From Actinomycetota bacterium (GTDB taxonomy: Bacteria; Actinomycetota; UBA4738; HRBIN12): 60,074 nucleotides of DNA. Below are positions 17,849-39,325 of the stretch, one piece after another; the first letter of the stretch is position 1, and every line of letters begins with the position of its first letter. Below the pieces are notes generated by a model that was given only the letters and a program-made list of their open reading frames with translations, did not search any database and was not told the DNA's origin. Location: positions 1-60,074 of the forward strand of contig JBJTIF010000006.1 in the NCBI GenBank assembly GCA_046094825.1. The letters run 5' to 3'. A program made the position numbers and the translations under genes.

Positions 17849-19204
17849 GTGAGCAACGTCACGAGCACACACGCGGCCGACCTCGCCGCGGCCGAGACCG
17901 CCCGCATGGTCGCGGCGACCCCGCACTCCAAGGCGCTGTACGACCGCGCGACCCGGGTCCTGCCCGAGGGCGTCGGGTCATCGTTCCAGGCCGGCGACCC
18001 GTACCCGCTCTACCTCGAGCGCGGGCAGGGCAGCCACGTGTGGGACGTCGACGGGCACGAGTACCTCGACTTCCACAACGGCTTCGGCTGCATGATCGTC
18101 GGCCACGCGCACCCGAAGGTCGCCGAGGCCATCGAACGGGCCGCCCGCACCGGCACCCACTTCGCGGCGCCGACCGCGGCCACGGTCGAGTTCGCCGAGG
18201 TGCTCTGCGAGCGGTTCGCGTGCGACTCCGTCCGCTTCGCGAACTCCGGCACCGAGGCGACGATGGGGGCGATCCGGATCGCGCGTGCGGCCACCGGACG
18301 CGACGACATCGTGAAGATCGAGGGCTCGTACCACGGCCACCACGACCCGGTGATGTTCAGCGTCGTCCCGAACGCCGACATGATGGGCGGGCGCGACGCA
18401 CCGCACTCGACGCCGATGTCACTCGGGATCCCGCAGTCGACCTCGGCGCACACCCACGTCGTGCCCTTCAACGACCTCACGGTGCTGCGCCGTCTGCTCG
18501 AGGAGCGCGGCGACTCGATCGCGTGCCTGATCCTCGAGCCGGTGATGATGAACATCGGCATCTGCCAGCCCCAGCCCGGGTACCTCCAGGGTCTCAAGGA
18601 CCTGCTGCACGAGTTCGGCGCCCTCCTCATCTTCGACGAGGTCAAGAGCGGCGCAACGGTCGCGTACGGCGGGGCGGTCGAGCGCTACGGGGTCGTGCCC
18701 GACCTCGCCTGCTGGGCGAAGGCGATCTGCGGCGGCACCCCGGGGGCGGCCTTCGGTGGTCGGGCCGACGTCATGGACACCATCGGCCGCGGCGCGGCGC
18801 AGCAGGGCACGTTCAACGGCAACCCCCTCGTGGCGGCGGCCGGCCTCGCGACCCTCACCGAGGTCCTCACCCACGACGCCTACGCGTACCTCGCCGACCT
18901 CGGCACACGGCTCGCCACCGGGTGCGCCGACGCCCTCGCGGCGAACGGCATCCCCGGACACGCGGTCGACCTCGGCGCCAAGGGTTGCGTGTCCTACCGG
19001 CCCGAGCCCCTCACGAACTACCGGGACTTCCTCGAGACCGACACCGACCTCTACGCCGCCTCGTACCCGTGGGCGATCAACCGGGGCATCTTCATGACCC
19101 CCGGCGACGAGGAGCAGTGGACGATCTCGGTGCAGCACACCGAGGAGGACGTCCTCCGCTACGTCGACGCGTTCGCGGAGTACTGCGCGGCGCTCGTCGC
19201 GTAG
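17849..19204 (+). CDS. Class-III (GSA-aminomutase-like) PLP-dependent aminotransferase
   Basis: ORF 17840..19204. GTG at 17849 is better spaced from the GGAGGGAG at 17832-17839. Motifs are ANSGTEATMGAIRIARA and the PLP-Lys region LIFDEVKSG. Confidence 0.8.
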   Translation: MSNVTSTHAADLAAAETARMVAATPHSKALYDRATRVLPEGVGSSFQAGDPYPLYLERGQGSHVWDVDGHEYLDFHNGFGCMIVGHAHPKVAEAIERAARTGTHFAAPTAATVEFAEVLCERFACDSVRFANSGTEATMGAIRIARAATGRDDIVKIEGSYHGHHDPVMFSVVPNADMMGGRDAPHSTPMSLGIPQSTSAHTHVVPFNDLTVLRRLLEERGDSIACLILEPVMMNIGICQPQPGYLQGLKDLLHEFGALLIFDEVKSGATVAYGGAVERYGVVPDLACWAKAICGGTPGAAFGGRADVMDTIGRGAAQQGTFNGNPLVAAAGLATLTEVLTHDAYAYLADLGTRLATGCADALAANGIPGHAVDLGAKGCVSYRPEPLTNYRDFLETDTDLYAASYPWAINRGIFMTPGDEEQWTISVQHTEEDVLRYVDAFAEYCAALVA

Positions 19205-19214
19205 GTCGCTCCGG

Positions 19215-19868
19215 GTGCCACCCGCGGTCGCGCTGCTCGACCTGTACGACACGCTCGTCTGGAGCGAGTGGTCGAGCCTGCGCCTGCGGATGGAGGAACG
19301 GCTCGGGCTCCCGACGCACCGGCTCATGGACGCGTTCGCGGCGACGATCCGAGAACGCGGCACCGGGGCGTACGGGAGCCCCGAGGGCGACCTGCGGGCC
19401 GTCCTCGAGGCGGCCGAGGTCGAGCCCGACGCCGACCTCCTCGTCGAGCTCCTCGCGATGGAACGTGACCACCTCGAGACCGGCATCCACTTCCACGAAG
19501 ATGCCCTTCCCGTCCTGCGCGCCCTGCGCGAACGGGGCGTCCCGACGGCGCTCGTGAGCAACTGCTCGCACGGGACGCGGACGGTCGTCGACCGTCTCGG
19601 GCTGGAGGACGAGATGGACGTCGTCGTCCTGTCGTTCGAGGCGCGGACGATGAAGCCCGACCCCGAGATCTACCTCGAGGCGCTCCGGCGACTCGGCGCG
19701 GCACCGGAGGACGCCGTCTTCGTCGACGATCAGGTGGCCTTCATCGATGGAGCGGAGGCGCTCGGGATCCCGTCGCTCCGCATCGACCGCGACCTCGCCG
19801 AGCCGCCGACGGGCGTCGTGACGAGCCTCTACGCGCTCCTCGAGCCCGGAGGCCCCGTTCCGCGGTAG
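19215..19868 (+). CDS. HAD-superfamily hydrolase
   Basis: 217 aa with motif I LLDLYDTLV (DxD), motif II VSNCS and a motif III/IV region FVDD. Confidence 0.75.
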   Translation: MPPAVALLDLYDTLVWSEWSSLRLRMEERLGLPTHRLMDAFAATIRERGTGAYGSPEGDLRAVLEAAEVEPDADLLVELLAMERDHLETGIHFHEDALPVLRALRERGVPTALVSNCSHGTRTVVDRLGLEDEMDVVVLSFEARTMKPDPEIYLEALRRLGAAPEDAVFVDDQVAFIDGAEALGIPSLRIDRDLAEPPTGVVTSLYALLEPGGPVPR

Positions 19869-19914
19869 GCCCGCTTCCCGGGAGGCGAGGCCTCGGGCGC
19901 GCCGGCGGGGAGGA

Positions 19915-21387
19915 TCAGCCGCCGAGCAGGGCGGAGAGCGCGGGCAGGTCGGCGAGCGCCTGCGGGTAGACGCCGATCGCGAGCACCGCGAGACTCGCGA
20001 GCACCGTGACCGCCGTCACCAGGGCGGGCCGCGCGAACGGCCGATCGGTCGTCGGGTCCGCGAGGAGCATCTGCCGCGGGACGGCGAGGTAGTAGGCGAG
20101 ACTCACGACCGAGTTCACGACCATGACGATCGCGAGGGCGATCCCGATACCCCCGCGCTCGATGGCCGCCCCGAAGATGAAGAGCTTCGCCCAGAACCCG
20201 CCCGTCGGGGGGATCCCCGCGAGGGACACCATGCAGACCGTCATCCCGATCGCGAGGAGCGGGGCGCGTCGGCCGAGGCCCGCGACATCCGAGACGAGGA
20301 GACCACGCGACTCCCGCGAGACCGCGATGACGACAGCGAACGCTCCGAGCGTCATGACGGCGTAGATGAGCACGTACGTCACGGCCGAGGAGAAGGCGGC
20401 GGCGTTCACCCGTGGGTCCGCGGAGACGAGCGCGAAGGGAAGGAGGATGTAGCCCGCCTGCGCGATGCTCGAGTACGCGAGCAGTCGCACGACCTGCCGC
20501 TGCTGGAGGGCGACGAGGTTGCCGATCGTCATCGTCGCGACCGCGAGCGCCGCGAAGACCGGCGTCCAGAACGCGTGCTGTGCGGGGAAGGCCACGAACA
20601 TCACCTGGATGAGTCCGGCGAAGCCGGCGGCCTTCGAGGCGGTCGCGAGGAAGGCCGCGACGGGGACGGGCGATCCCTCGTACGTGTCCGGCGCCCAGAA
20701 CTGGAACGGTACGGCGGACACCTTGAACGCGAAGCCCGCGACGATGAAGAGGATCCCCGCGAGGGCGAGCGCGTCCTGCCCGGCCGGCAGCGGCGTGCGG
20801 AGCGCCTCGCCGATCCCGACGAGGTCGAGCGTCCCCGTGAGCCCGTAGATCAGGCTCATGCCGTAGAGCATGACCGCGGTCGACAGGACGCCGATGAGGA
20901 AGAACTTCATCCCCGCCTCGTTCGAGCGCGGGTCGGTCTTGCGGAACGAGGCGATGAGGAACCCGGGCGCGGAGACGAGCTCGAGCGCGATGAAGAGCAT
21001 GAGGAGGTTCCGGGACGAGGGCATCATCACGCAGCCGAGGAAGGCGGTGAGGAGCAGGAAGTAGTACTCGCCCTGGTAGAACCCGCCCTCGCGCATGTAC
21101 CGGAACGACACGAGGAGCACCGTCGCCCCGACCGCGAGGAAGAACACCTTGAAGAGCACCGCGAACCCGTCGACGACGTACATCCCGTCGAACGTCGAGC
21201 GGGTCTCCCCGACGAGGAGCAGCGTCGCCCCGAGGGCGGCGAGGACGCCGAGGAGGGCGAGCGGCATGCCGAGCCACGCGCGCTTCGGGGGCAGGAACGC
21301 GTCCGCGACGAGCATGAGCACGAGCGTCGCGGACAGGATGATCTCCGGCGCGATCGCGAGGAGGTCGATCCCGGGGTTCTGCGGCAC
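19915..21387 (-). CDS. nuoN: NADH-quinone oxidoreductase subunit N, operon 2
   Basis: 490 aa, polytopic antiporter-like, with FQFWAPDTYEGSPVPVAAFL and LLAYSSIAQAGYIL motifs. It is the last gene of the truncated operon. Confidence 0.9.
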   Translation of the reverse strand: MPQNPGIDLLAIAPEIILSATLVLMLVADAFLPPKRAWLGMPLALLGVLAALGATLLLVGETRSTFDGMYVVDGFAVLFKVFFLAVGATVLLVSFRYMREGGFYQGEYYFLLLTAFLGCVMMPSSRNLLMLFIALELVSAPGFLIASFRKTDPRSNEAGMKFFLIGVLSTAVMLYGMSLIYGLTGTLDLVGIGEALRTPLPAGQDALALAGILFIVAGFAFKVSAVPFQFWAPDTYEGSPVPVAAFLATASKAAGFAGLIQVMFVAFPAQHAFWTPVFAALAVATMTIGNLVALQQRQVVRLLAYSSIAQAGYILLPFALVSADPRVNAAAFSSAVTYVLIYAVMTLGAFAVVIAVSRESRGLLVSDVAGLGRRAPLLAIGMTVCMVSLAGIPPTGGFWAKLFIFGAAIERGGIGIALAIVMVVNSVVSLAYYLAVPRQMLLADPTTDRPFARPALVTAVTVLASLAVLAIGVYPQALADLPALSALLGG

Positions 21388-21388
21388 G

Positions 21389-22927
21389 TCAGGCCCCCAG
21401 CAGGCGCACGAGCGCCTCGACCGGCCCGTCCGTCACCGCGAACACGATGCGCGGGTACAGCCCGAGGACGACGATGCCGACGAGGAGCGGCGCCCAGGCC
21501 GCCCATTCGATCGGGAGCACGTCGTCGAAGGCGGCGTCCGTCCAGCGGTCCGGAACGGTGCCCATGTTCACCCGCTGGAGCATCCAGAGGAAGTAGCCGG
21601 CGGTGAGGATCGTCCCGATGCCGCCCGCCACCATGAACACCCGGAAGAGCCCCTCGGAGAGGACGCCCGCGGGCTGGAAGGCAGACAGGAGCGACATGAC
21701 CTCGCCCCAGAACCCGGCGAGCCCCGGGAGCCCGAGGGATGCGATCGAGACGAACGCGAAGATCCCCGCGAGGAACGGCATCTTCTGCATCATGCCGCCG
21801 CCGATCTCGGCGATCTCGCGCGTGTGGTAGCGGTCGTAGAGCGAGCCGACGGTGAAGAAGAGCATCCCGGTGATGAGGCCGTGGGCAACCATCCCGAAGA
21901 TCGCCGCGTTGATCCCGATCGTCGTGAGCGTCGCGATGCCGAGCATCACGAAGCCCATGTGGCCGACCGACGAGAAGGCGATGAGCCGCTTCAGGTCACG
22001 CTGAGCGAGGCACGCGAGCGCGGCGTAGACGATCGCGATCGCGGACAGGAGCCCGATCCACGGCGCGTACGCCCGGGCGCCGTCGGGCAGGAGCGGGAGG
22101 GCGATCCGCACGAAGCCGTACGTGCCCATCTTCAGCATGATGCCGGCGAGGAGCACCGAGCCGATCGTCGGGGCCTCCGTGTGCGCGTCCGGCAGCCACG
22201 TGTGGAACGGCCACATCGGGACCTTCACCGCGAACCCGAGGGCGACCGCGCCGAAGACGACCATCTGGAACCCCGCAGGGAAGCCGCCCTGCGCGGCGAA
22301 GGCCTGGAGCTGGAGGATGTCGAAGGTGTGCGCACCGCCACCGACATCCGAGCGGAAGTACATCGCGAGGAACCCGAGCAGCATGAACACCGATCCGAAC
22401 AGGGTGTAGAGGAAGAACTTGATCGCCGCGTACTCGCGGTTCGCGCTCCCCCAGACCGCGATGAGGAAGTACATCGGCACGAGCACGAGCTCCCAGAAGA
22501 CGAAGAACAGGATGAGGTCGAAGGCGATGAACGTGCCCGCCATCCCGGTCTCAAGGAGCAGCATGAGCGCGACGAAGGCCTTCGCGTTGCCCGGCTTCGG
22601 CACGAAGCGCCAGGTGTAGATCGCGCAGAGGAACGAGAGCGCGAACGTGAGGACGAACAGGGGCATCGAGATGCCGTCGATCCCGACGTGGTACCGGGCG
22701 GAGATCGCCGGGATCCAGGAGGCGTCGACGGCGAACTGGAGGTCCCCCGGTCGCGCGTAGTCGAACCCGAACGCGATCCCGAGCGCGACGAGGAGCGCCG
22801 CACCGGTCACCGCGATCCCGAGCCCGCGCGCGAGCCGGTCCCGGCTCGCCGGGACGAGCGCGATCACGATCGCGCCCACCAGCGGCAGGAAGGTCGCGAT
22901 CGAGATCGCCCAGTCGTTCCACGTCAT
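21389..22927 (-). CDS. nuoM: NADH-quinone oxidoreductase subunit M, operon 2
   Basis: 512 aa with VKVPMWPFHTWLPDAHTEAPT and LIAFSSVGHMGFV motifs. Confidence 0.9.
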   Translation of the reverse strand: MTWNDWAISIATFLPLVGAIVIALVPASRDRLARGLGIAVTGAALLVALGIAFGFDYARPGDLQFAVDASWIPAISARYHVGIDGISMPLFVLTFALSFLCAIYTWRFVPKPGNAKAFVALMLLLETGMAGTFIAFDLILFFVFWELVLVPMYFLIAVWGSANREYAAIKFFLYTLFGSVFMLLGFLAMYFRSDVGGGAHTFDILQLQAFAAQGGFPAGFQMVVFGAVALGFAVKVPMWPFHTWLPDAHTEAPTIGSVLLAGIMLKMGTYGFVRIALPLLPDGARAYAPWIGLLSAIAIVYAALACLAQRDLKRLIAFSSVGHMGFVMLGIATLTTIGINAAIFGMVAHGLITGMLFFTVGSLYDRYHTREIAEIGGGMMQKMPFLAGIFAFVSIASLGLPGLAGFWGEVMSLLSAFQPAGVLSEGLFRVFMVAGGIGTILTAGYFLWMLQRVNMGTVPDRWTDAAFDDVLPIEWAAWAPLLVGIVVLGLYPRIVFAVTDGPVEALVRLLGA

Positions 22928-22949
22928 GCCGTTCCCCCTCTGTCTCTCG

Positions 22950-24923
22950 TCAGACCCGCGTGAAGATGATGGCCAGGATCACCAGGCCGGTGAAGAGGAA
23001 CGCCGCGTAGCGCTGGACGTTCCCCGACTGCACGTACCGGAGCACCCCTCCGACGAACCCGAACACCCCTGCGGTGCCGTTCACCGCGCGATCGATGAGC
23101 CCCCGGTCGACCGCCATGACGGCGACCGAGGCCCGCCGCGCGGAGGTGGCCGCGCCGTTCACGATCCGGTCGAGGATCTGCTGGTTCGACCGGTAGACCG
23201 CGGCCGACGCGCGATCGCGGATCGGGAAGACGAGGCCACGCAGGTACACGTCGTCGAGGTAGTACTTCCGCTGGAGCACCCGCGCGAACGCGCCGAGACG
23301 GAACACCGGGTCGGGATCGCGGCGCTCGCGGTAGAGCCGCCAGCCGGCGCCGATGCCCGCGAGCGCCGCGGCGATCGAGACCGCCGCGACCCACGGGACG
23401 AAGAGGTGCTCCTCGTGCTCGCCGAAGTAGACCCAGTCGCCGAACACCGCGCCGAGCTGCGGGGCGCCGAGGAACCCGACGGAGACCGCGGCGGCGGCGA
23501 GGGCGATGAGCGGGCCCGTCATCGTCGCCGGAGACTCGTGCGGGTGACCCTGCCCGCGGTACGTGCCCGAGAACGTGAGGAGCACGGCGCGGGTCATGTA
23601 GAACGCGGTGAGGACTGCCGTCACGAGGAGCACGACGAACAGGACCGGGTGACCCTCCTTCGCGGCGACGACGAGGAGCTCGTCCTTCGACCAGAAGCCC
23701 GCGAGCGGCGGGACCCCTGCGAGGGCCACGGAGCCGATGAGGAACGTCCAGTACGTCCTCGGCATCGGACCCTTCAGGCCGCCCATGTCCGACATGTTGT
23801 TCGAGTGCGCGGCGTGGATCACCGAGCCCGCCCCGAGGAACAGGAGCGCCTTGAAGAACGCGTGGGTGAAGAGGTGGAAGAACCCGGCGGTGCGACCGCC
23901 CGGGCCCATCGACATGCCCGCGACCATGTACGCGAGCTGCGAGATCGTCGAGTACGCGAGGACCTTCTTGATGTCGTCTTGGACGAGCGCGAGGAGCGCC
24001 GCGCCGAGCATCGTGATCCCGCCGACGATGCCGACGACCTGGAGGACCGCCGCTCCGGCGTGCACGAAGACCTCGTACATCCGGCCGACGAGGTACACAC
24101 CGGCGGCGACCATCGTCGCCGCGTGGATGAGCGCCGAGACGGGCGTCGGACCGGCCATCGCGTCCGGCAGCCACACGTGGAGCGGGAACTGCGCGGACTT
24201 GCCGATCGTCCCCCCGAAGAGCAGGAGGGCGGCGGCCGCGACGAGCGCGGTCGAGAGCTCGCCCGACGCGACCTGCTCGCCGATCTCCGCGATGTTCGAC
24301 GTCCGCATCCCCGTGGCGGCGACGAGGACGAAGATCCCGAACATGAAGGGGATGTCGCCGACCCGCGTCGTGAGGAAGGCCTTCATCGCGGCGTTCGAGT
24401 TCGCCTTCTCCTCCCACCAGTGACCGATGAGGAGGTACGAGCAGACGCCCATGATCTCCCACCCGAGGAGGAGCTGGAAGAGGTTGTCGGCGATGACGAC
24501 GTTCAGCATCGCCCCGGTGAAGAGCGAGAGCACGACGTAGAACCACGTGAACCGCGCATCGCCGTGCATGTACCCGAGCGAGTACACGTGGACGCAGAGC
24601 GAGACCGAGGTGACGACGACGAGCATCACGGCCGTGAGGCCATCGATGTACTGCCCGACCGTCATCTCGAGGGGGCCGACCGAGAACCACGGGAGGGACG
24701 CCCCGGCGGGGCCGCCGCCCTGCACGAAGTGCCAGAGGATCCCGAGCGACAGGAGGAACGCCGCCCCGATCGCGAGGATGCCGTAGATCGGACCCTTCCC
24801 CGGGGTGCGCCTGCCGAGCGTGAGCGTGAGCACCGCGGACACGAACGGGAGGAGCACGACGAGCCAGGCGTTCGCGAGGAAGAAGCCCGGGTCGGTCGCG
24901 ATCGCGGTCTCAGCGCCTACCAC
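22950..24923 (-). CDS. nuoL: NADH-quinone oxidoreductase subunit L, operon 2
   Basis: 657 aa with [16 protein letters not shown] and [25 protein letters not shown] long C-terminal amphipathic segment plus a final TM corresponds to the lateral helix. Confidence 0.9.
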
Positions 24924-25219
24924 CGGAGGAGGTTCACCTCGTCCACGTTGATCGTCTCCCGGTTGCGGTAGATGAGGATCACGATCGCGAGCCCGATGCC
25001 CACCTCGGCGGCGGCCACGGCGATCACGAAGAGCGCGAAGGCCTGGCCGGCGAGGTCGCCGAGCTGCGCGGCGAAGGCGACGAGGTTCACGTTCACGGCG
25101 TTCAGCATGAGCTCGATCGACATGAGGACGAGGACGGCGTTGCGCCGCGCGAGGACCCCGTAGACGCCGACGGCGAAGAGGGCCGCGGAGAACAGGAGCG
25201 GGAGCGCGAGGCGGATCAC
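24917..25219 (-). CDS. nuoK: NADH-quinone oxidoreductase subunit K, operon 2
   Basis: GTG at 25219 (GTGA overlap with the nuoJ stop). 100 aa with 3 TM and [17 protein letters not shown]. Confidence 0.85.
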
Positions 25220-25716
25220 GGGCGGTCGTCCTTGCGGGAGAGGACGACGGCGCCGATTAGCGCCGCGAGGAGGAGGAACGAGATCGCCTCGAACGGCAGG
25301 ACGAAGTCCCGGAAGATCGCGGCCCCGATGTCGCCGGTCGAGGTGACCGTGCCGCCGCCGACCGCAGCCTCGGTGCCGAACGCGCCGACGAGGAGGAACG
25401 CGAGCCCGACGAGGATCGCGCCGGCGACGGCGACCGCGAGGCCCCGGCTCTGGTTGTCGAGCACCTCGCGCCCGATCGGCGCCTTCGTGAGCATGAGCCC
25501 GAAGAGGAAGAGGATCACGATCGCCCCGACGTAGATGAGGATCTGCACCCACGCGAGGAACTCGGCGCCGAGCAGGAGGTACGCGACGGCCATCGACGCG
25601 AGTGCGACGACGAGGGAGAGCGCGGCGTGGACGACGTTGCGCGCGGTCACGAGCCGGATGCCGCCCGCGACGCCGATCGCGGCCACGATCGAGAACGCGA
25701 TCTCCGCGCCGCTCAC
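25216..25716 (-). CDS. nuoJ: NADH-quinone oxidoreductase subunit J, operon 2
   Basis: GTG at 25716 (GTGA overlap with the nuoI stop). 166 aa with [26 protein letters not shown]. Confidence 0.85.
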
Positions 25717-26246
25717 GCGTCCTCCCCGGCGGGCCGCTCGGCGCCGACCTCGAGCTCGGGCGGCGGCAGGACGGTGTACGTCCAGGACTCGAGCTTCTCC
25801 TTCTCGTGGAGGAGCTCGGAGATGCCGTACTCGCTGTACTCGAACTCCGGGCTCCAGAAGAGCGCGTCGAACGGACAGACCTCGACGCAGATGCCGCAGT
25901 ACATGCAGAGCGAGTAGTCGATCGCGAACCGATCGAGGACCTTCACCGACCGGGCCTTGCCGCCGGAGGCGGGCTCGTGGGACTCCTTGTGGGCGTCGAT
26001 GTAGATGCACCAGTCCGGGCACTCGCGCGAGCACTTGTAGCAGACGGTGCAGTTGGCCTCCTTGAGGGCGATGACGCCGCGGGTCCGCGCCGGGAGGTCG
26101 GGCTTCACGTCGGGGTACGACTGCGTCACCGCGGGGCGCAGGAGGTGTCGGAGCGTCACCATGAGGCCCTTCAGGAGGCCGAGCCCCTTGCCGTCAGGCA
26201 GCTCCTGCTCGTCCATCGGCCGCACGTGTCGCTCGTCGATCGCCAT
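25713..26246 (-). CDS. nuoI: NADH-quinone oxidoreductase subunit I, operon 2
   Basis: ATG at 26246. 177 aa with two 4Fe-4S motifs, [12 protein letters not shown] and [12 protein letters not shown]. Confidence 0.9.
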
Positions 26247-26254
26247 CGTGCCCC

Positions 26255-27253
26255 CTACACCGCGACCTTGAGGATCGCCACGACGAGGATCTGCACGAGC
26301 GCGAGCGGGATGAGCGCGAGCCACGAGAACCGCTGGAGCTGGTCCTCGCGGAGCCGCGGGTAGGCGGTCCGCAACCAGATGATGAAGAACGAGAGGAGCC
26401 CGATCTTCGCGGCCATCCAGAGCGGCGCGGGGACCGCGCCGAGGAACGGCAGCGCCTGGTAGCCGCCGAGGAACAGCACGGACGCGATCGCGGAGAGGCC
26501 GACGATCCCCGCGTACTCCGCGAGGAGGAAGAACGCGAACTTCAGCCCCGTGTACTCCGTGAAGGCCCCGAAGATGATCTCCGAGTCGGCGATCGGCATG
26601 TCGAACGGCGGCCGGGTGAGCTCGGCGACCGACGCGATGAGGAAGATCGCGAACCCGATCGGCTGCGTGAGGACGAACCAGACGCTGTCCTGCGCCTCGG
26701 TGATGCCGATGAGGGAGAGCGTGCCCGCCTGCATGACGACGGCCGCCGCGGCGAGGACGAGCGGGAGCTCGTAGGCGATGAGCTGGGCCGCCGCGCGGAG
26801 CGCGCCGATGAGCGAGAACTTGTTCGCGGAGGCCCAGCCCGCCATGAGGACGCCGATCACGTTCACCGAGGTGATCGCCATGACGAAGAAGATCCCGATG
26901 TCGAGGTTCAGGATGAAGATCTGGTCGGAGAACGGGATCACGACGAAGAGCGCCATGTAGGGGACGAGCGCGACCGCCGGCGCGAGCGAGAACACGAGCC
27001 CGTCGGCGGCCTTCGGGATCACGTCCTCCTTCTGGACGAACTTCACGCCGTCCGCGACGAGCTGCGCCCACCCGTGGAAGCCGCCGGCCTCCATCGGTCC
27101 GAAGCGCGACTGCGAGTGCGCGAGGACCTTGTGCTCGACGTAGCCGACGAGGAGCGGCGCGACGAGGAAGAACCCGATCACGACGAGCGCCTTCACGACG
27201 ATGACGAGGCCCACGGGGCCGATGCCGTCGAGGAATCCGGTCGCGGAGATCAT
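26255..27253 (-). CDS. nuoH: NADH-quinone oxidoreductase subunit H, operon 2
   Basis: ATG at 27253 overlaps the nuoC stop (ATGA). 332 aa with [17 protein letters not shown] and LLAEYAGIV motifs. Confidence 0.9.
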
Positions 27254-27780
27254 TCCTCCTCGTCCTCCTCGCCTTCTCCTTCGGCGGCGCCGGGCCACGG
27301 CTTCGCGACGCGGCTCATGAGGGCGAAGTCCTTCCGCATCGGGAAGCCCTCGAACTGCTCGGGGAGCAGGAGCTTCACGGGCTCGGGATGCCCGACGACG
27401 TCGATGCCGAACATCTCCATGCACTCGCGCTCGTGCCAGTCCGCCGTCGGGTAGAGGTCGGAGATCGTCGCGATCGCCGGGGCCTCGCGGGGCAGGAGGA
27501 CCTTCACGCGAGCGCCGTGGTGGCGGGTCGTGGAGGCGAGGTGGGTCACGATCTCGAACCCATCGGCCTGCCGATCGACGACGGTCACGAAATCGCAGAA
27601 GTCGCACGCGAGCTCGGGGTCGTCGCGCAGGAACGCGATCGTCTCGTGGTACCGGGGTCCGGTCACCCGCACGACGGCGTGCCCGTGCTGCTCGTCGGCC
27701 TCGAGCAGCTCGTCGCCGAAGCGCGCGCGCAGCCGGGCCGCGATGTCAGGAGCCGACAGCGGGCGCGGCGTGCTTGCCAC
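27250..27780 (-). CDS. nuoC: NADH-quinone oxidoreductase subunit C (30-kDa), operon 2; not a NuoCD fusion
   Basis: 176 aa from a GTG start, with [14 protein letters not shown] and PMRKDF motifs and an acidic tail [12 protein letters not shown]. It is followed immediately by nuoH. Confidence 0.85.
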
Positions 27781-28261
27781 TCCACTTCTCCCTGATGTCC
27801 TCGTTCTTGATCTTCTCCTGGAGGAGCACGATCCCCTGGATCAGCGCCTCCGGGCGGGGCGGGCACCCCGGCACGTACACGTCCACGGGGACGATCTGGT
27901 CGACGCCCTTCGTCACCGAGTACGAGTCCCAGTACGGCCCGCCGCAGTTCGCGCACGAGCCCATCGAGATGACGTACTTCGGGTCAGGCATCTGGTCGTA
28001 CACCCGCTTCAGCGCCGGGGCCATCTTGTCCGTGAGCGTCCCGGCGACGACGAGGAGGTCCGCCTGCCGCGGCCCGTGCGCGAACGGGATGACACCGAGC
28101 CGCATGAAGTCGTGCTTCGAGGTCGAGGCGGCGATGAACTCGATCGCGCAGCAGGCGAGCCCGAAGTTCATCACCCACAGGGAGTAGCGGCGCCCCCAGT
28201 TCAGGAGGAACTTCACCGGCTGGATCGACGCGAGCGGCGTCTTCTCGGTGATCAGGCCCAC
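27746..28261 (-). CDS. nuoB: NADH-quinone oxidoreductase subunit B, operon 2
   Basis: GTG at 28261 in ORF 27746..28672. All N2-cluster ligand motifs are present: [25 protein letters not shown]. Confidence 0.9.
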
Positions 28262-28617
28262 CGGAGCACCCCCTTGCGCCACGCGTAGAGGAGCCCGGTC
28301 GCGAGGATCGCGATGAAGACGACCATCTCGATCACCGCCTGCCAGCCGAGGCTCTCGAAGACGCGGGCCCACGGGAAGAGGAACACGGCCTCGACGTCGA
28401 AGATCACGAAGAGGAAGCCGTAGACGTAGTACCGGACCTGGCTCTGCGCCCACCCCTCGCCGACGGGGTCGATCCCGCACTCGTAGGTCGTGAGCTTCGC
28501 CGGGAGCGGTCGCCGGGGGGCGATGAGCCGCGCGGCGAGGAAGGCGACCCCGACGAGGCCCGCGCCCGCGATGAGCACGGCGAGCACGACGGCGTAGGAC
28601 TCGAGGTACGGCGTCAT
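28252..28617 (-). CDS. nuoA: NADH-quinone oxidoreductase subunit A, operon 2
   Basis: 121 aa with 3 TM and YECGIDP and [12 protein letters not shown] motifs. The ATG overlaps the stop of the upstream polyprenyl synthase (ATGA). Confidence 0.9.
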
Positions 28618-29654
28618 CCGGTCGTCTCCCCCACGGTCGGGCGGAGTCTATCGGCCCCTCCCGCCTCCGCACCGCACCGGGACGCGAGGAACCGCGCGAG
28701 GTCGCCGAGCGCCCGGGTCGCGACCCCCGCGGGGAGGCGCTCGGCGAGGGCGACGGCCCGCTCCACCTCGGCCGAGACGGCGCGGCGGGCGTCGCCCAGG
28801 ACGGCCTCGGATCGCACGATCTCGAGCGCCCGATCCCTCCGCGGCCCCTGCGGCGGAGCGTCCCGGAGCAGGTCGGCGAGTTCGGCCCCGTCCGGACCGC
28901 GGAGCCCGAGCAGGACCGGGAGGGTGTAGACGCCCTCGTCGAGGTCGACGCCGGGTTCCTTGCCGAGGACCTCCGCCGAGGCGGTGAGGTCCATGATGTC
29001 GTCGGAGAGCTGGAAGGCCATCCCGAGCGCCTCGCCGAAGGCCTCGAGCGTGTCGAGGTGCTCCCGGGGCGCGTCGGAGACCATGCCCCCGAGCCGACAC
29101 GACGTCGCGGTGAGCACCGCCGTCTTGCGACGGATGATCTCGAGGTACGCCTCGGTGGACTGCTCGATCCGCCCCGACGCCTCCACCTCGCGGATCTGAC
29201 CGTCGCAGAGCGTCGCGATCGTCCGCGCGAGGAGCGCCGAGATGTCCGTCCCGAGCTCGGTCGAGATCTCGGAGGCCCGGGCGAAGAGGTAGTCCCCCGT
29301 GAGGATCGCCACCGTGTTCGACCAGCGAGCGTTCACGCTCGGCGTGCCGCGCCGCGAGTCCGCCTCGTCGATCACGTCGTCGTGGTACAGCGTCGCGAGG
29401 TGGACGAGCTCGATCGCGACCGCGCCGGGGACGAGCCGGGGATCCGTCGGATCGCCGACGTAGCCGGACAGGAGCACGAGCATCGGTCGGAACCGCTTGC
29501 CGCCGGCGGCGAGGAGGTACTGCGAGGTCTCGGCGAGGAGCCCCGCGTCGGCGCGTACCGCCTTCTCGAGCGCCGTCTCGACCTCCTCGAGCCGCGCGCG
29601 GACGTCGCGCTCGAGCACCGGGTCGGGCGACGCGAGGCCGGGGAGCGTCACCAT
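28614..29654 (-). CDS. Polyprenyl diphosphate synthase (long-chain trans-IPPS, quinone side-chain type)
   Basis: ATG at 29654 within ORF 28614..30413. 346 aa with [12 protein letters not shown] and [12 protein letters not shown] plus [11 protein letters not shown]. It overlaps the nuoN(1) stop and the nuoA(2) start. Confidence 0.85.
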
Positions 29655-31090
29655 CGGATCACCGAGGCGGCGCGGACGATGTCGAGGACCGGGCCCGGGA
29701 GCACTCCGAGGGCGACCGTCACGAATGCGGTGGCGGCGACGGCCGCGCGGAGCGCGGGCGTCGCCGCCGGGGACGCGGAGGCCTCGTCGGGTTCCTCCAT
29801 GTACATCCGGACGAGGACGCGGAGGTAGAAGAACGCCGACGCGACGCTCGCGAGGACGCCGACGAGGACCAGCCAGATCATCCCCGCGTCGACGGCCGCG
29901 CGGAACACCTGGAGCTTCGCGACGAACCCGGCCATCGGCGGGATCCCCGCCATCGACAGGAGGAACACCGTGAGGAGCGCGGCGAGGAGCGGATCGCGAC
30001 GGGCCAGCCCGCGGAACGCCGCGAGATCGCTGCGCTCCTCGGAACGCCCCTGGACGAGGAGGACGACGCCGAACGCCCCGAGGACCATCCCCGCGTACGC
30101 GACGAGGTAGAAGAGGGCCGCGGACATGCCCGTCTGGCCGGTCGCGACGAGGCCGGTGAGGATGAAGCCCGCGTGCGCGACGCTCGAGTACGCGAGCATG
30201 CGCTTCACGTCGGTCTGGGCGATCGCGAGGACCGATCCCACGACGATGGAGAGCGCCGCGATCCCGGCCACGATCGGCGTCCAGTCCCACGCGAGCGGCT
30301 GCAGGCCGACGTGGAACGTCCGCGCGAGGGCGGCGAACGCGGCGACCTTCGTGCCGGCGGCCATGAACGCGGTCACGGGCGTCGGCGCGCCCTCGTACAC
30401 GTCCGGCGTCCACATGTGGAACGGCGCCGCGCCGACCTTGAACGCGAACCCCACGGCGAGGAGCAGCACGGCGAGGAGTCCGAGGGCGCGGACCCCGGCG
30501 TCGCCGCCGGAGATCGCGGCGGCGACGCCGGCGAGTCGCGTGGTCCCCGCGGCGCCGTAGGCCATCGCGACGCCGAAGAGGAAGAACGCGGAGGAGAACG
30601 ACCCGAGGAGGAAGTACTTCAGGGCCGCCTCCGAGGCGCCGAGCCGCGCACCGAGTCCGGTGAGCACGTAGAGCGCGAGCGAGAGGATCTCGAGCGCGAG
30701 GAAGACGACGATGAGGTCGGTCGCCGACCCGATGAGCGTCATCCCGAACGTCGCGAACAGGACGAGCGCGCCGAACTCCGGTCGCAGGCGCTCCCCCTCC
30801 TGGTGGTGCGCGAACGCGAGCCCGAGCCCCGCGGCGGCGAGCACGACGAGCCGGACGACGATGCCGAATCGGTCCGACGCGACCGCGCCCGCGAGCACCG
30901 CCCCGCCGTCGGCGCCGTCCCAGCGCAGGACCGCGACCCCGGCCGCGAGCGCGAGACCGACCCCGGCGGCGCCGACGAGCGCGCCGCTCGAGGGACGTCG
31001 CGGCAGGACGCCCGCGATGAGGACCCCGATCGCGAACGCGAGGAGCACGAGTTCGGGAGCGATCGGCCCGAGCGCGATCGAGGGCGTCAC
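29648..31090 (-). CDS. nuoN: NADH-quinone oxidoreductase subunit N, operon 1
   Basis: GTG at 31090 (GTGA overlap with the nuoM stop). 480 aa with FHMWTPDVYEGAPTPVTAFM and MLAYSSVAHAGFIL. Confidence 0.9.
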   Translation of the reverse strand: MTPSIALGPIAPELVLLAFAIGVLIAGVLPRRPSSGALVGAAGVGLALAAGVAVLRWDGADGGAVLAGAVASDRFGIVVRLVVLAAAGLGLAFAHHQEGERLRPEFGALVLFATFGMTLIGSATDLIVVFLALEILSLALYVLTGLGARLGASEAALKYFLLGSFSSAFFLFGVAMAYGAAGTTRLAGVAAAISGGDAGVRALGLLAVLLLAVGFAFKVGAAPFHMWTPDVYEGAPTPVTAFMAAGTKVAAFAALARTFHVGLQPLAWDWTPIVAGIAALSIVVGSVLAIAQTDVKRMLAYSSVAHAGFILTGLVATGQTGMSAALFYLVAYAGMVLGAFGVVLLVQGRSEERSDLAAFRGLARRDPLLAALLTVFLLSMAGIPPMAGFVAKLQVFRAAVDAGMIWLVLVGVLASVASAFFYLRVLVRMYMEEPDEASASPAATPALRAAVAATAFVTVALGVLPGPVLDIVRAASVIRW

Positions 31091-32595
31091 GGCGTCGCCT
31101 CCCCCGCGAGCGCCGCGACGGGGGCCTCCTCCGTGACCCGCTCGACGACGGCCGCCGAGGTCGGCGCGATCCGCTCGAGCAGGGGCTTCGGGTACACGCC
31201 GAAGACGAGGAGGAGCGCGAGCACCGGCGCGAGGAGCGCCGCCTCGCGCACGGAGAGGTCGGGATGCGCGGCCTGGCCCACGGGCGGCTCGCCCTGCGCC
31301 ATCCGCTGGTAGGCCCACAGCAGGTAGATCGCCGCGAGGACGACCCCGGCGGCGGCGAGCGCTCCGAGGAGACGGTTCGTCGCGAGCGTGCCGACGATGA
31401 CGAGGAACTCCCCGACGAAGTTGTTCAGCCCGGGCAGGCCGAGGGACGAGAGCGACGCGACGAGGAAAGCCGCGGACAGGAGCGGCATCGTCGTCGCCGT
31501 CCCGCCGAGCTCGCCGAGTTCCCGCGTGTGCGTCCGCTCGTACACCATGCCGACGAGGAGGAAGAGCGCGCCCGTCGACAGGCCGTGGTTCACCATCTGG
31601 AGCACGCCGCCCGTCATCCCCTGTTCGGTGAACGCGAAGACGCCGAGCACGACGAACCCGAGGTGCGAGACGGACGAGTACGCGATGAGGCGCTTGAGAT
31701 CGGTCTGCGCGATGGCGACGACCGCCCCGTAGAGGATCCCGATGACCGCGAGCACCTGGATCGCGGTCCCGAACGCCCGGGAGGCCTCGGGGAACAGCGC
31801 GAGGTTGAAGCGGATCAGGCCGTAGCCGCCGAGCTTCAGGAGGATCGCGGCGAGGACGACCGACCCGGCGGTCGGCGCCTCCGTGTGCGCGTCGGGGAGC
31901 CACGTGTGGAGCGGAAAGAGCGGCACCTTCACCGCGAACGCGACGAAGAAGCCCACGAAGAGCCAGCGGGCGGTCGCCGTCGGGAGGTCGAGCGTGGCGA
32001 GGTCGCGGACGTCGAACGACGGCCCGCCAGGGAGCGCTCCCGAGTGCTGGTAGAGCACGAGGATCGACGCGAGGAGGAACGCCGAGCCGAACATCGTGTA
32101 GAGGAAGAACTTCACGGCCGCGTACACGCGACGGCCGTAGCCCCACACGCCGATGAGGAGGTACATCGGGAACAGGAGTGCCTCGAAGAAGAGGAAGAAC
32201 AGGAGGAGGTCGAGCGCGAGGAACGCCCCGATGCACGCGGTCTCGAGCAGGAGCAGCGCGGCGAGGAAGAGCGGCACGCGCGTCGCCACCTTCCATGAGG
32301 CGAGGATCGCGATCGGCGTGAGGAACGTCGTGAGCGCGACGAGGAAGATGCTCACCCCGTCCACCCCGAGGAGGTACTGCACGCGGGGCGAGGAGATCCA
32401 CGTCGCGCGCTCGACGAGCTGGAAGCCGTCGACGGCCGGGTCGAAGCGGCCGAGGAGCCCGAGGGAAGCGAGGAAGGCGAGGAGCGACGCGCCGAGCGCC
32501 ACCCACCGTGCCACGTCGTCCGGGATCCGGCGCCACGCGAGGAGGACGGGGACGCCGAGGAGCGGCAGGAACGTCACGAGCGTGAGCCACCTCAC
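31087..32595 (-). CDS. nuoM: NADH-quinone oxidoreductase subunit M, operon 1
   Basis: GTG at 32595 (GTGA overlap with the nuoL stop). 502 aa with VKVPLFPLHTWLPDAHTEAPT and LIAYSSVSHLGFV. Confidence 0.9.
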   Translation of the reverse strand: MRWLTLVTFLPLLGVPVLLAWRRIPDDVARWVALGASLLAFLASLGLLGRFDPAVDGFQLVERATWISSPRVQYLLGVDGVSIFLVALTTFLTPIAILASWKVATRVPLFLAALLLLETACIGAFLALDLLLFFLFFEALLFPMYLLIGVWGYGRRVYAAVKFFLYTMFGSAFLLASILVLYQHSGALPGGPSFDVRDLATLDLPTATARWLFVGFFVAFAVKVPLFPLHTWLPDAHTEAPTAGSVVLAAILLKLGGYGLIRFNLALFPEASRAFGTAIQVLAVIGILYGAVVAIAQTDLKRLIAYSSVSHLGFVVLGVFAFTEQGMTGGVLQMVNHGLSTGALFLLVGMVYERTHTRELGELGGTATTMPLLSAAFLVASLSSLGLPGLNNFVGEFLVIVGTLATNRLLGALAAAGVVLAAIYLLWAYQRMAQGEPPVGQAAHPDLSVREAALLAPVLALLLVFGVYPKPLLERIAPTSAAVVERVTEEAPVAALAGEATP

Positions 32596-34475
32596 GTGAG
32601 CCGCACCCCCACGTAGATGCCGAGGACGACCGCTCCGAGGAGGACCGCGAGCGCGTACGAGCGGACGAACCCGGTCTGGAGGCGGCGGCCGCGCTCCGCG
32701 AGGTCGGCGACGACCGCGCCCGTCCCATCGACGATCCGATCGACGATGCCGCGATCGATCGCACGGGCGGAGAACCGCGCGACGGCGGTCGACGGCGCGA
32801 CGACGAAGCGCGCGTAGGCGCGGTCGACGTACCCACCGGCCTCGAGGAACCGGTGGAACGGTGCGTTGCGCTCGCGCCGGGCGAGCCAGTCGACCCGTCC
32901 GGATCCGTAGACCCACCACGCGGCCGCGAGTCCGGCGCTCGCCACGACGAGGGAGATGAGCGTGAGCCCGAGCTCGGAGATCCCGTGCTCCGCCGCCTCG
33001 GCGACCTCGCCGAGGGACGGTGCGAGGAACCGCGCGAGGAGGCCCTCGCGGGCCGTGAGACCGAGGAGGCCCCCCGCGGCCGACAGGACCGCGAGGACGA
33101 CGAGCGGCGCGGTCATGATCGCCGGCGACTCGTGGACCGGCGTGTCCGAGCGACGGCCCCCGGCGAAGGCGAGGGTCACGAGCCGCACGATGTAGAGCGC
33201 GGAGAGGAAGGCCCCCACGAGCCCGAGGACCCAGACGCCCGGCTGTCCGGCCTCGAAGGCCGCCGCGATGACCTGATCCTTGCTGAAGAACCCGGCGAAC
33301 GGCGGGAGGCCGGCGAGCGCGAGCGCACCGACGACCATCACGCTCGAGGTCACCGGTAGGAGGCCGCGGAGACCACCCATGCGCTTCACATCCGTCTCGT
33401 CGTGCATCGCGTGCATCACCGAGCCCGCCGAGAGGAACAGGAGCGCCTTGTAGAACGCGTGCGTGACGAGGAGGAAGATCGCCGCCGCGTAGGCCCGCAG
33501 GCCGAGGGCGAGGAACATGAACCCGAGCTGGCTGATCGTCGAGTACGCGAGCACGCGCTTGCTGTCGTCCTGGCCGAGCGCGGCGACCGCCGCGTAGAGC
33601 GCGGTGATGAGCCCGACGACGAGCACGACGGTGAGCGCGACGCCCGATGCCTCGAAGAGGACGTGCGTCCGGGCGACGAGGTAGACGCCCGCCGTCACCA
33701 TCGTCGCGGCGTGGATGAGCGCGGAGACCGGCGTCGGTCCCTCCATCGCGTCGGGCAGCCAGACGTGGAGGGGGACCTGGGCGGACTTCCCGATCGCCCC
33801 GCCGAACAGCAGGAGCGCGATCGCCGTGAGCGTCCCCGTCGGGACCGCGCCGTAGGTCGCCGGGTCGAGGATGGTCGTGAGGTCGAGGGACCCGAGCTGC
33901 AGGAACGCGAGGGCGATCCCGAGCATGAGGAAGGTGTCGCCGACGCGGGTCGTGACGAACGCCTTCTTCGCGGCCTCCGCGGCGCGGTGGCGCTCGAACC
34001 AGAAGCCGATGAGGAGGTACGAGCAGAGGCCGACGCCCTCCCACCCGAGGTAGAGGAGGAGGAGGTTCTCCGCGAGGACGAGGACGAGCATGAACCCGAC
34101 GAAGAGGTTCAGGTACGCGAAGAAGCGGGAGAAGCGGGGATCGCCCTCCATGTAGCCGATCGCGTAGACGTGGATCAGGCTGCCGACGCCGGTGACGACG
34201 AGGAGCATCGTGGCGGCGAGCGGGTCGAGCCGAAGGTCGACGCCGACCCGCAGTCCCCCGACCGCGATCCACTCGAAGACGCGCGCGACGAGGATCCGCT
34301 CCTCGGCCGGTCGCGCGACGAGGTCGAGGAGCGCGCCGACGGACAGGGCGAAGGACGCCGCCATGACCGCGACCGCGAGCCACCCCGCGCCGCGCCCGAA
34401 CCGACGCCCCGCGGCGAAGTTCACGGCGCCACCGAGGAACGGCAGGAGCGGTACGAGCCACAGGAGGTCGGTCAC
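32592..34475 (-). CDS. nuoL: NADH-quinone oxidoreductase subunit L, operon 1
   Basis: 627 aa with WEGVGLCSYLLIGFWF and [24 protein letters not shown], plus a C-terminal lateral-helix region. Confidence 0.9.
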   Translation of the reverse strand: MTDLLWLVPLLPFLGGAVNFAAGRRFGRGAGWLAVAVMAASFALSVGALLDLVARPAEERILVARVFEWIAVGGLRVGVDLRLDPLAATMLLVVTGVGSLIHVYAIGYMEGDPRFSRFFAYLNLFVGFMLVLVLAENLLLLYLGWEGVGLCSYLLIGFWFERHRAAEAAKKAFVTTRVGDTFLMLGIALAFLQLGSLDLTTILDPATYGAVPTGTLTAIALLLFGGAIGKSAQVPLHVWLPDAMEGPTPVSALIHAATMVTAGVYLVARTHVLFEASGVALTVVLVVGLITALYAAVAALGQDDSKRVLAYSTISQLGFMFLALGLRAYAAAIFLLVTHAFYKALLFLSAGSVMHAMHDETDVKRMGGLRGLLPVTSSVMVVGALALAGLPPFAGFFSKDQVIAAAFEAGQPGVWVLGLVGAFLSALYIVRLVTLAFAGGRRSDTPVHESPAIMTAPLVVLAVLSAAGGLLGLTAREGLLARFLAPSLGEVAEAAEHGISELGLTLISLVVASAGLAAAWWVYGSGRVDWLARRERNAPFHRFLEAGGYVDRAYARFVVAPSTAVARFSARAIDRGIVDRIVDGTGAVVADLAERGRRLQTGFVRSYALAVLLGAVVLGIYVGVRLT

Positions 34476-34479
34476 CGCG

Positions 34480-34785
34480 TCACCACCGCAGCAGCGCAGC
34501 GTCGTCGACGTCGGCGGAGCGCCGCCGCCGGTACACGGAGACGATGATCGCGAGCCCGACGACGACCTCGGCGGCCGCCACCACCATCGAGAAGAACGCG
34601 AGGACCTGGCCGGTGAGGTTCCCGTGCATCCGGGAGAACGTCACGAGCGCGAGGTTCACGGCGTTCAGCTGGAGCTCGATCGACATGAACATGAGGAGCG
34701 CGTTGCGCCGCAGCAGGACGCCCAGGGAGCCGACGGCGAACAGCGCAGCGGAGACGACGAGGAAGTACGCGATCGGCGTCCTCAC
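34480..34785 (-). CDS. nuoK: NADH-quinone oxidoreductase subunit K, operon 1
   Basis: 101 aa with [17 protein letters not shown] and 3 TM. Confidence 0.9.
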
Positions 34786-35327
34786 GGGGCCGCGCCCTCC
34801 CCTCCGACCGACGTCGCGGGCTCCCGCCGCGCGAGGACCATCGCGGCGATCGCCGCGACGATGAGGAGCACGGACGTCACCTCGAAGGGGAAGAAGTACG
34901 ACCGGAAGAGCACGTCGGAGAGCGCCTGTGGGTTGCCCCCCTCGTTCGCGGCGAACTCCGCCGGGACGCGCGTCGCGAACCCGACACCGGCACGGATCGC
35001 GAGGACGAGCTCCGCGACGAACCCGACGCCGAGGAGGAGCGCGATCGGGCGTTGCCCTCGGAGGCGCTCGACGAGCGACTCGTGGCGATCGACGCCGAGG
35101 AGCATGATCACAAAGAGGAAGAGCACCATGATCGCCCCCGCGTACACGATGATCTGCACCGCGAAGAGGAACGGCGCGCCGAGCACGAGGTAGAAGACGG
35201 CGATCGTGAAGAAGTTCACGACGAGGAAGAGCGCGGCGTGGACCGCGTTGCGCTGGACGAGCATCGCGATCGCCGAACCGATCGAGATCGGCGCGAAGAC
35301 CCAGAACACGAGGTTGTCGAGCGGCAC
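34782..35327 (-). CDS. nuoJ: NADH-quinone oxidoreductase subunit J, operon 1
   Basis: 181 aa with [28 protein letters not shown]. Confidence 0.9.
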
Positions 35328-35328
35328 C

Positions 35329-39321: not shown

Positions 39322-39325
<4 letters not shown>
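36923..39325 (-). CDS. nuoG: NADH-quinone oxidoreductase subunit G
   Basis: GTG at 39325 (GTGA overlap with the nuoF stop). 800 aa with an N-terminal 2Fe-2S region (CRQC), [17 protein letters not shown] and [11 protein letters not shown], then a molybdopterin-oxidoreductase-like domain. Confidence 0.9.

Follow-up and report, generated by a model that had tools for sequence, protein, structure and literature searches.

A ten-gene nuo2 cluster without nuoD, joined to a complete nuo operon in uncultured Actinomycetota, and its descent from an 11-gene complex-I-like operon

Cyanobacterial and chloroplast NDH-1 is a complex-I-like enzyme of 11 core subunits that has no NuoEFG, and its isoforms share a core. 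Its genes are split, with ndhC-K-J (corresponding to nuoA-B-C), ndhA-I-G-E (nuoH-I-J-K) and a separate ndhH (nuoD), and the enzyme uses plastoquinone and ferredoxin together with extra Ndh subunits. Among actinobacteria, streptomycetes carry additional genes nuoA2, B2, D2 and H2 to N2, which are contiguous except for nuoD2, located elsewhere (Moody et al. 2013, PMC3765725; Pinatel et al. 2021, PMC8388888), and the proteins of Streptomyces coelicolor SCO4599-4608 have been detected by proteomics (PMC9739823). Here we describe a second set of complex I genes, designated nuo2, in a stretch of 60,074 nucleotides (nt) from an Actinomycetota bacterium (UBA4738; HRBIN12; contig JBJTIF010000006.1, assembly GCA_046094825.1), called the window below, with a G+C content of about 70%. 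On sequence grounds the set is assigned to the actinobacterial nuo2 cluster, already described but functionally uncharacterised. NDH-1 is not its closest lineage as judged by scores against the PDB, and the extra Ndh subunits of NDH-1 are absent here.

The nuo2 set consists of ten collinear, tightly packed minus-strand genes at 28617-19915, in the order nuoA2, B2, C2, H2, I2, J2, K2, L2, M2, N2, whose neighbors overlap or nearly touch and which contain no frameshift or internal stop. They complete an unbroken string of 25 minus-strand genes (43983-19915) that begins with nuoA1 to nuoN1, a complete operon by its layout of open reading frames (29648-43983), and continues through a polyprenyl diphosphate synthase gene (28614-29654; Pfam polyprenyl_synt, 209 bits) lying between nuoN1 and nuoA2. 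The nuo2 proteins are 33-59% identical to those of nuo1. The genes nuoE, nuoF and nuoG are found in the window in nuo1 only, and nuoD1 (41291-42559, minus strand), which scores 566 bits against M. smegmatis NuoD and passes the NCBIfam NuoD models, is the sole NuoD gene of the 60 kb. Searches by tblastn with NuoD1, NuoE1, NuoF1 and NuoG1 against the six frames of 19000-29000 produced no match with an E-value below about 0.2-0.5, and a NuoD2-type query, run against the whole window, matched nuoD1 alone. The six-frame NuoD1 and NuoD2 searches, together with a conserved 4-nt overlap between nuoC2 and nuoH2, exclude a nuoD hidden or frameshifted within nuo2. In the window, the nuoH2 ATG (27253) overlaps the nuoC2 stop (27250-27252).

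A sequence-only reading of this DNA had described ten collinear genes in the order A-B-C-H-I-J-K-L-M-N, a nuoH start overlapping the nuoC stop, a NuoC too short to be a NuoCD fusion, a full nuo operon close by, and a locus without nuoD, nuoE, nuoF or nuoG. Each of these descriptions stands. Every one of the ten proteins scores above its Pfam family cut-off, the coordinates of the overlap agree, NuoC2 has 176 amino acids (aa) and the 30-kDa domain only, nuoA1-N1 is complete on the same strand, and the six frames yielded no frameshift-hidden nuoD, the finding by which that reading had proposed to be refuted. It had also mentioned a similar partial nuo2 locus in Streptomyces, which is borne out both by a Streptomyces locus examined here and by the two papers on streptomycetes (PMC3765725, PMC8388888).

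That locus, from Streptomyces sp. NPDC005774 (L089), has nuoA2-B2-C2-H2-I2-J2-K2-L2-M2-N2 followed by a gene for an M48 peptidase (19707-20570). In Actinoplanes (L090), nuoC2 likewise lies directly before nuoH2, and an M48 gene is found about 1.8 kb downstream of nuoN2; Streptomyces, Actinoplanes and Glycomyces together supply a further group of NuoC proteins bearing the KPWPG motif discussed below. The window and Streptomyces share the contiguous A2 to N2 order without nuoD, E, F and G and the same nuo2-specific motifs in NuoB2 and NuoH2. Their nuo2 proteins are 37-81% identical, with NuoB2 of the window at 73-81% and NuoH2 at 58-61%, compared to only 51% and 38-42% for the same two proteins against nuo1 of the window. 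The two loci differ in setting, as Streptomyces nuo2 occupies a locus of its own beside the AbrC two-component system, identified as such in S. coelicolor (PMC9739823), while nuo2 of the window is joined to nuo1 through the synthase gene. The window lacks the M48 gene that follows nuoN2 in Streptomyces and in most relatives of the window. An unlinked nuoD2 is reported in Streptomyces, whereas for the clade of the window none was found within the 60-kb window or the 83 related loci described below. NuoC2 differs as well: it has 176 aa in the window, whereas that of Streptomyces, with a disordered tail of repeats, reaches about 500 aa. The 504-residue NuoC2 of NPDC005774 (L089:10001-11515) has the 30-kDa domain first, then PGESEHGGPKRRQMLPPGVPDPNEWGP, a conserved segment, and finally a tail rich in Pro and Ala in which R(T/S)xxEGSAS(Q/R) is repeated about six times. 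This tail was considered as a degenerate NuoD and rejected, being of low complexity and without similarity to NuoD. Beside the same Streptomyces cluster (L089:1407-8609) we observed a divergent two-component system with two kinases and genes for a 2-oxoacid:ferredoxin oxidoreductase. The latter, which are not in the window, encode a possible source of reduced ferredoxin.

Nonomuraea gerenzanensis provides a second case of separation. Its nuo2 cluster, at 1.21-1.22 Mb (L180), has nuoC2 directly followed by nuoH2, and a lone NuoD2-type gene is found at 0.47 Mb (L179:11878-13119), about 740 kb from nuo2 and with no nuo gene within 12 kb of it. The encoded protein is 57% identical to NuoD2 of Salsipaludibacter and 39% identical to NuoD1, is of the short form, and carries the motif RHDWLS and an ending FFVVGDID. 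The replicon concerned, NZ_LT559118.1, is listed in PLSDB as 'Nonomuraea gerenzanensis plasmid I', with a length of 11.85 Mb and ten annotated features; it carries chromosomal nuo genes and is evidently the chromosome, entered as a plasmid.

A search of cluster representatives for NuoC relatives found proteins 40-45% identical to NuoC2, with KPWPG and long tails, in Euzebya, Salsipaludibacter and Nitriliruptorales. These NuoC genes sit in an 11-gene operon, nuoA-B-C-D-H-I-J-K-L-M-N, which encodes a NuoD of 393 aa and lacks nuoEFG. Such operons were seen in Nitriliruptoria (Salsipaludibacter albus, L085) and in soil Actinomycetota (L176-L178), and further examples occur in metagenome contigs and metagenome-assembled genomes, several of them directly after nuo1 and the synthase gene with nuoD2 in place. 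Against proteins of the 11-gene operons, nuo2 of the window shows 72-83% identity for NuoB2, 62-73% for NuoI2 and 54-69% for NuoH2, where identity to nuo1 is 30-54%; for the L085 operon in particular, the values for nuo2 and nuo1 are 76% and 47% (B), 71% and 30% (I), and 56% and 38% (H). NuoD2-type genes (L085:11878-13059 and L134:3325-4479, in addition to that of Nonomuraea) form a family that is internally very conserved but only 38-40% identical to NuoD1. NuoD1 carries a 41-residue segment that NuoD2-type proteins lack, and where NuoD1 has RADYLS, NuoD2 has RHDWLS, with Trp replacing the Tyr that binds quinone.

The window and the 11-gene operons thus share orthologous subunits, the absence of nuoEFG and, often, a position after nuo1 and the synthase gene. 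They differ in that the operons have nuoD2 between nuoC2 and nuoH2, with no NuoD encoded alongside in the window, and in that many of the NuoC2 and NuoI2 proteins of the operons bear long disordered tails with a basic motif. Because the nuo2 proteins are orthologous to those of nuoABCDHIJKLMN operons, and not to those of nuo1, nuo2 of the window is an 11-gene operon from which nuoD2 has been lost. A burst of NuoC2 divergence upon loss of nuoD2 was considered and dismissed, as control pairs that both keep nuoD2 are equally low (34-48% for NuoC2) at matched divergence of the B, H and M proteins.

The basic motif, of about 35 residues with the consensus (I/L)DQE(T/V)(Y/F)DxLIAEGKSERIARSKAKAA(F/W)VKK, ends Ala/Pro-rich linkers. 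In the lineages that keep nuoD2, NuoI2 bears two or three copies in tandem and most NuoC2 tails bear one (L084, L085, L087). About a quarter of the clade of the window has a single copy, on NuoI2, and the window itself has none. Genes encoding it include L001:11542-12396, L002:11551-12408, L085:14162-15229, L087:10264-11307 and L088:10288-11571, besides those for the NuoC2 tails in L084-L087. Searches with the motif of Pfam and the PDB returned no match. An acidic electron donor may dock on it. Precomputed annotation puts a putative match to Pfam PF27542 ('ArfC'), falling on low-complexity sequence, on the NuoC2 tail of L085 (10001-11881) and on a separate gene between nuoC2 and nuoD2 in L084 (11281-12330).

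Individually, the ten proteins keep the features expected of complex I subunits. NuoA2 (28252-28617; 121 aa; Pfam Oxidored_q4, 125 bits) retains the YECG and FDVE motifs. NuoB2 (27746-28261; 171 aa; Oxidored_q6), the carrier of cluster N2, has all four N2 Cys ligands (CC, GSC, GCPP), and its best match among solved structures is the mitochondrial PSST subunit, at about 198 bits over 144 residues. NuoI2 (25713-26246; 177 aa; Fer4 families) has two [4Fe-4S] motifs, with both CxxCxxCxxxCP sequences and all eight Cys residues kept, and lacks a C-terminal extension present in about a quarter of its relatives. NuoH2 (26255-27253; 332 aa; NADHdh, 334 bits) and NuoJ2 (25216-25716; 166 aa; Oxidored_q3, 124 bits; its gene start overlaps the nuoI2 stop) are followed by NuoK2 (24917-25219; 100 aa; Oxidored_q2, 111 bits), which keeps both conserved membrane Glu residues. 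The three antiporter-like proteins are NuoL2 (22950-24923; 657 aa; Proton_antipo_N and Proton_antipo_M), NuoM2 (21389-22927; 512 aa; Proton_antipo_M) and NuoN2 (19915-21387; 490 aa; Proton_antipo_M). All three retain Glu in transmembrane helix 5 (TM5) and Lys in TM7, accompanied by TM8 His and TM12 Lys in NuoL2, TM8 Lys and TM12 Glu in NuoM2, and TM8 Lys and TM12 Lys in NuoN2. The long C-terminal lateral helix of NuoL2 and its anchor align with NuoL1.

Among NCBIfam models, those passed are the NuoB subfamily model by NuoB2 (232 bits against a cut-off of 116), the equivalog models for NuoL by NuoL2 (616 against 556) and for NuoH by NuoH2 (NF004741), NDH_I_M by NuoM2 and NDH_I_N by NuoN2. NuoA2, NuoI2 and NuoC2 (NuoC_fam, 94.7 against 122.45) fall below these curated cut-offs though above those of Pfam. 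Compared to canonical complex I, represented by nuo1 of the window and by M. smegmatis (8e9g), nuo2 has the same ten families, cofactor ligands and pumping residues, including those of N2, NuoI and NuoK/L/M/N; canonical complex I differs in having NuoD, E, F and G, in sequence (the 33-59% identity to nuo1), and in the motifs of its quinone pocket. No homologue of the large subunit of a group 4 [NiFe] hydrogenase (Mbh/Ech/Hyf) was found in the locus, and NuoB2, NuoC2 and NuoH2 match chains of complex I with far higher scores than they match chains of Mbh or formate hydrogenlyase.

NuoC2 (27250-27780; Pfam Complex1_30kDa, 122 bits) bears on whether a NuoD is present. In an AlphaFold2 model, residues 10-135 have a predicted local distance difference test (pLDDT) score above 90, and the best Foldseek matches are NuoC/30-kDa chains of complex I. 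Residues 146-176 score below 50. However, the arm at 136-169 has 22 invariant positions out of 34 across 84 sequences, compared to 34 out of 135 in the globular region. Known structures of complex I show NuoC with its C-terminal arm packed against NuoD. The most conserved part of NuoC2 is predicted not to fold alone, and the arm has, in this model, the pattern of a segment that becomes ordered only on a partner. The tail of NuoC2 in the clade shows an invariant KPWPGAxEGE followed by poly-Glu. We considered KPWPG as the mark of a nuoD-less family and ruled it out, since the motif is present in 87 of 150 diverse NuoC representatives.

The surroundings of the quinone site carry signatures of their own. 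NuoB2 reads CCAIEFI where the canonical sequence is CCAxEMM, and the TM5-6 loop of NuoH2 reads FDMPxADSE in place of FDLxEAESE(L), with the loss of one conserved Glu; NuoH2 has an EHK signature also, and NuoB2 a second signature of 19 residues. These nuo2-specific signatures are identical in the lineages with nuoD2 in the operon, in Streptomyces, and in the clade of the window. The nuo2 lineage as a whole is thereby marked by an atypical quinone pocket, with the Trp of NuoD2 and altered NuoB2 and NuoH2 loops. The unchanged signatures, together with a conserved NuoC2 arm predicted to be unfolded by itself, suggest that a partner of the NuoD type seems to be retained in the clade of the window.

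Relatives of NuoC2 of about 175 aa number more than 1000 in public data, and a scan restricted to one genome per species gave at least 242 genomes with one. The best 80 of the 242 all belong to uncultured Actinomycetota, including one labelled Solirubrobacterales and one labelled Thermoleophilia. We compared 83 related loci of about 20 kb each and judged gene order wherever the contig reaches. The order nuoA2 B2 C2 H2 I2 J2 K2 L2 M2 N2 is identical in the 83 loci, and the 4-nt overlap between the nuoC2 stop and the nuoH2 start is found in 80 of them. Where upstream sequence is available, the related loci have nuo1, then the polyprenyl synthase gene, then nuo2, with a gap between synthase and nuoA2 of median 45 nt and maximum 120 nt. 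A single locus departs from this arrangement: L073 (1-9100) has the synthase gene and nuo2 with no nuo1 genes in about 8 kb upstream. In 41 of 50 relatives, the gene immediately after nuoN2 encodes an M48 (HtpX-like) peptidase (e.g. L001:18271-19131). In the window, its place is taken by a convergent gene for a HAD-family hydrolase (19098-19868, plus strand).

Within the clade, nuo2 proteins are no less conserved than nuo1 proteins compared in the same genomes. The respective identities are 77% and 75% for H, 78% and 78% for I, 70% and 68% for J, 84% and 79% for K, 67% and 62% for L, and 79% and 66% for M. NuoB2 and NuoI2, at 83-85% and 78-81%, are among the most conserved subunits. The ligands and pumping residues kept, the identical order in 83 loci, and identities at or above those of nuo1 argue that nuo2 is a maintained, functional gene set, not a decaying copy. 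This agrees with the sequence-only reading, which had judged the locus not to be decayed and had pointed to the N2-cluster Cys motifs of NuoB2, both NuoI2 motifs and the lateral-helix region of NuoL2; all of these are present.

We consider nuo2 to encode an 11-subunit-type complex-I-like enzyme whose NuoD would be supplied in trans by an unlinked nuoD2, a reading to which we give about an even chance. The unlinked nuoD2 is the leading candidate, with NuoD1 of the adjacent nuo1 as the alternative, because nuo2 clusters without nuoD in Streptomyces and Nonomuraea have nuoD2 elsewhere and because of the descent from 11-gene operons. For the clade of the window itself, an unlinked nuoD2 is suggested by analogy. 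The ten genes would provide the membrane arm (A, H, J, K, L, M, N) and the Q-module subunits B, C and I of a second enzyme, presumably a proton-pumping quinone reductase, with assembly and pumping predicted from the features described above. Electrons would enter at the two clusters of NuoI2, with reduced ferredoxin or the N-module of nuo1 as candidate donors, and would pass from there to cluster N2 on NuoB2. Menaquinone would then be reduced within a pocket that NuoB2, NuoD2 and NuoH2 form together, and protons would be pumped through NuoH2/A2/J2/K2 and the three antiporter-like subunits. The lineage would never have had a NuoEFG of its own.

Several results weigh against a nuoD2 located elsewhere in this clade. 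None was found in the 60-kb window, nor within 10 kb of nuo2 in the 83 loci. In two lists of the top 120 NuoD2 homologues, reaching down to 68% identity, all six of the contexts looked up were operons. A scan of metagenomes with a NuoD2-specific DNA pattern returned 85 stretches, 83 of them with a NuoD2-type gene, and wherever the flanks were sufficient the order was always C-D-H; a scan of viral contigs for an orphan nuoD2 found none. An orphan like that of Nonomuraea, 55-57% identical and reading YMHRGAEK where the pattern requires YMHRGFEK, would be missed by these searches, and the negatives accordingly weaken the case for an unlinked nuoD2 without refuting it. In addition, nuo2 of the clade is nearer to the lineages with nuoD2 in the operon (about 66% for NuoH2 and 64% for NuoM2) than to Streptomyces (59% and 53%). 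With nuo2 of the window standing nearer to nuoD2-keeping soil lineages than to Streptomyces, nuoD2 may have left the operon independently in this clade, and the precedent of Streptomyces and Nonomuraea need not transfer. There is a smaller but appreciable chance that the clade has nuoD1 as its single NuoD, in which case it would either be shared by two co-transcribed isoforms or nuo2 would have no 49-kDa subunit. To our knowledge, neither NuoD sharing between complex I isoforms nor a pump without the 49-kDa subunit has been described for complex I.

The sequence-only reading had offered three options, namely borrowing of NuoD from the adjacent operon, an unlinked electron-input partner, and a genuinely NuoD-less machine. 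Borrowing of NuoD1 is indeed possible, but an unlinked cognate nuoD2, indicated by the Streptomyces papers, the Nonomuraea orphan and the descent from 11-gene operons, was not among them. Under borrowing, nuo2 would recruit NuoD1, and possibly NuoE1, F1 and G1, from nuo1 just upstream, giving two isoforms with shared peripheral subunits, comparable to the variants of cyanobacterial NDH-1 with their common core. We regard this as rather unlikely. It is consistent with nuoD1 being the only NuoD gene of the window, with nuo2 following nuo1 and the synthase through overlaps or short gaps, with the failure of the homologue lists and the metagenome scan to produce a NuoD2-type orphan, and with NuoC2 of the clade being slightly closer to NuoC1 (about 39-42%) than is NuoC2 of nuoD-containing operons (33-35%). 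However, NuoD1 differs from NuoD2-type proteins by its low identity (38-40%), its extra 41 residues and its Tyr in place of Trp, and NuoB2 and NuoH2 keep their nuo2-specific pocket signatures regardless. Fixed differences that converge toward nuo1 residues are few and mixed and speak for neither side, and NuoC2 shows no extra divergence tied to the loss of nuoD2. Adjacency to nuo1 is also found in lineages that keep nuoD2, is thus older than the loss, and was dismissed as a mark of NuoD1 sharing; in Streptomyces and Nonomuraea, moreover, the nuoD-less cluster lies far from nuo1 and nuoD2 is elsewhere (PMC3765725).

A genuinely NuoD-less enzyme, in which NuoB2, C2 and I2 would sit on the membrane arm and N2 would exchange electrons with quinone or another partner at a new site, is improbable in our estimation, and is the least supported of the three earlier options. 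No nuoD is present in the cluster across more than 80 genomes and none was found elsewhere for the clade, and the invariant KPWPGAxEGE and poly-Glu tail of NuoC2 would fit such a state, but KPWPG is common in many actinobacterial NuoC proteins. NuoD supplies most of the quinone site of complex I, and NuoC, whose main known role is to bind NuoD, is strongly conserved here together with its arm. The pocket motifs of NuoB2 and NuoH2 match those of relatives with NuoD2. We know of no complex I-type enzyme without NuoD. Cultured relatives with the same cluster, Nonomuraea among them, possess nuoD2 (PMC3765725, PMC8388888). It is very unlikely that nuo2 has ceased to be a redox enzyme, with a membrane arm that acts like the Mrp cation/proton antiporters and with NuoB2, C2 and I2 kept as structural remnants. 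Although NuoL2, M2 and N2 are homologous to Mrp subunits and the cluster lacks NuoD, E, F and G, the three proteins pass Nuo models while their NCBIfam matches to Mrp are far under the Mrp cut-offs; NuoH2, A2, J2 and K2 are specific to complex I, and an MrpA-G set is not found. All eight NuoI2 and four NuoB2 Cys residues are kept in motifs that are invariant across the clade, and these two subunits are among the most conserved. That nuo2 is a decaying, functionless duplicate, as four missing genes of the canonical fourteen might suggest, can practically be set aside, given start-stop overlaps throughout with no frameshifts or stops, the same order in 83 loci with conservation at least that of nuo1, and orthologues made as protein in Streptomyces (PMC9739823).

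The synthase gene, with its ATG at 29654 and its stop at 28614, overlaps nuoN1 (stop at 29648) on one side and nuoA2 (ATG at 28617) on the other, which suggests that both sets of complex I genes and a gene for the menaquinone side chain make up one very long transcription unit. A scan of 19000-30500 for promoters and terminators found none, a result of little weight at such G+C content. The region upstream of nuo1 (44002-53653) is a neighborhood of respiratory genes. It includes a FAD-dependent geranylgeranyl-reductase-like gene (44002-45246, minus strand), a long open reading frame that combines CtaA (heme A synthase) with UbiA/CtaB domains (45432-48527, plus strand), whose first 430 or so codons are free of domains and may be over-called, a cupredoxin protein gene (49079-49981, minus strand) and a gene for cytochrome oxidase subunit I (51761-53653, minus strand).

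Actinobacterial nuo2 is widespread, with at least 242 species-level genomes in addition to Streptomyces, Actinoplanes and Nonomuraea; it is conserved like canonical complex I and, according to Streptomyces proteomics, expressed. What the window adds is an origin in an 11-gene operon, with nuoD2 gone from the operon in several lineages, and a large soil clade in which the ten genes have been attached behind nuo1, giving a string of 25 genes. If the clade has a second NuoD, its nuoD2 would be an ordinary dispersed gene. If nuoD1 is truly its single NuoD, the clade would offer a natural case either of two complex I isoforms with a subunit in common or of an enzyme that does without NuoD.

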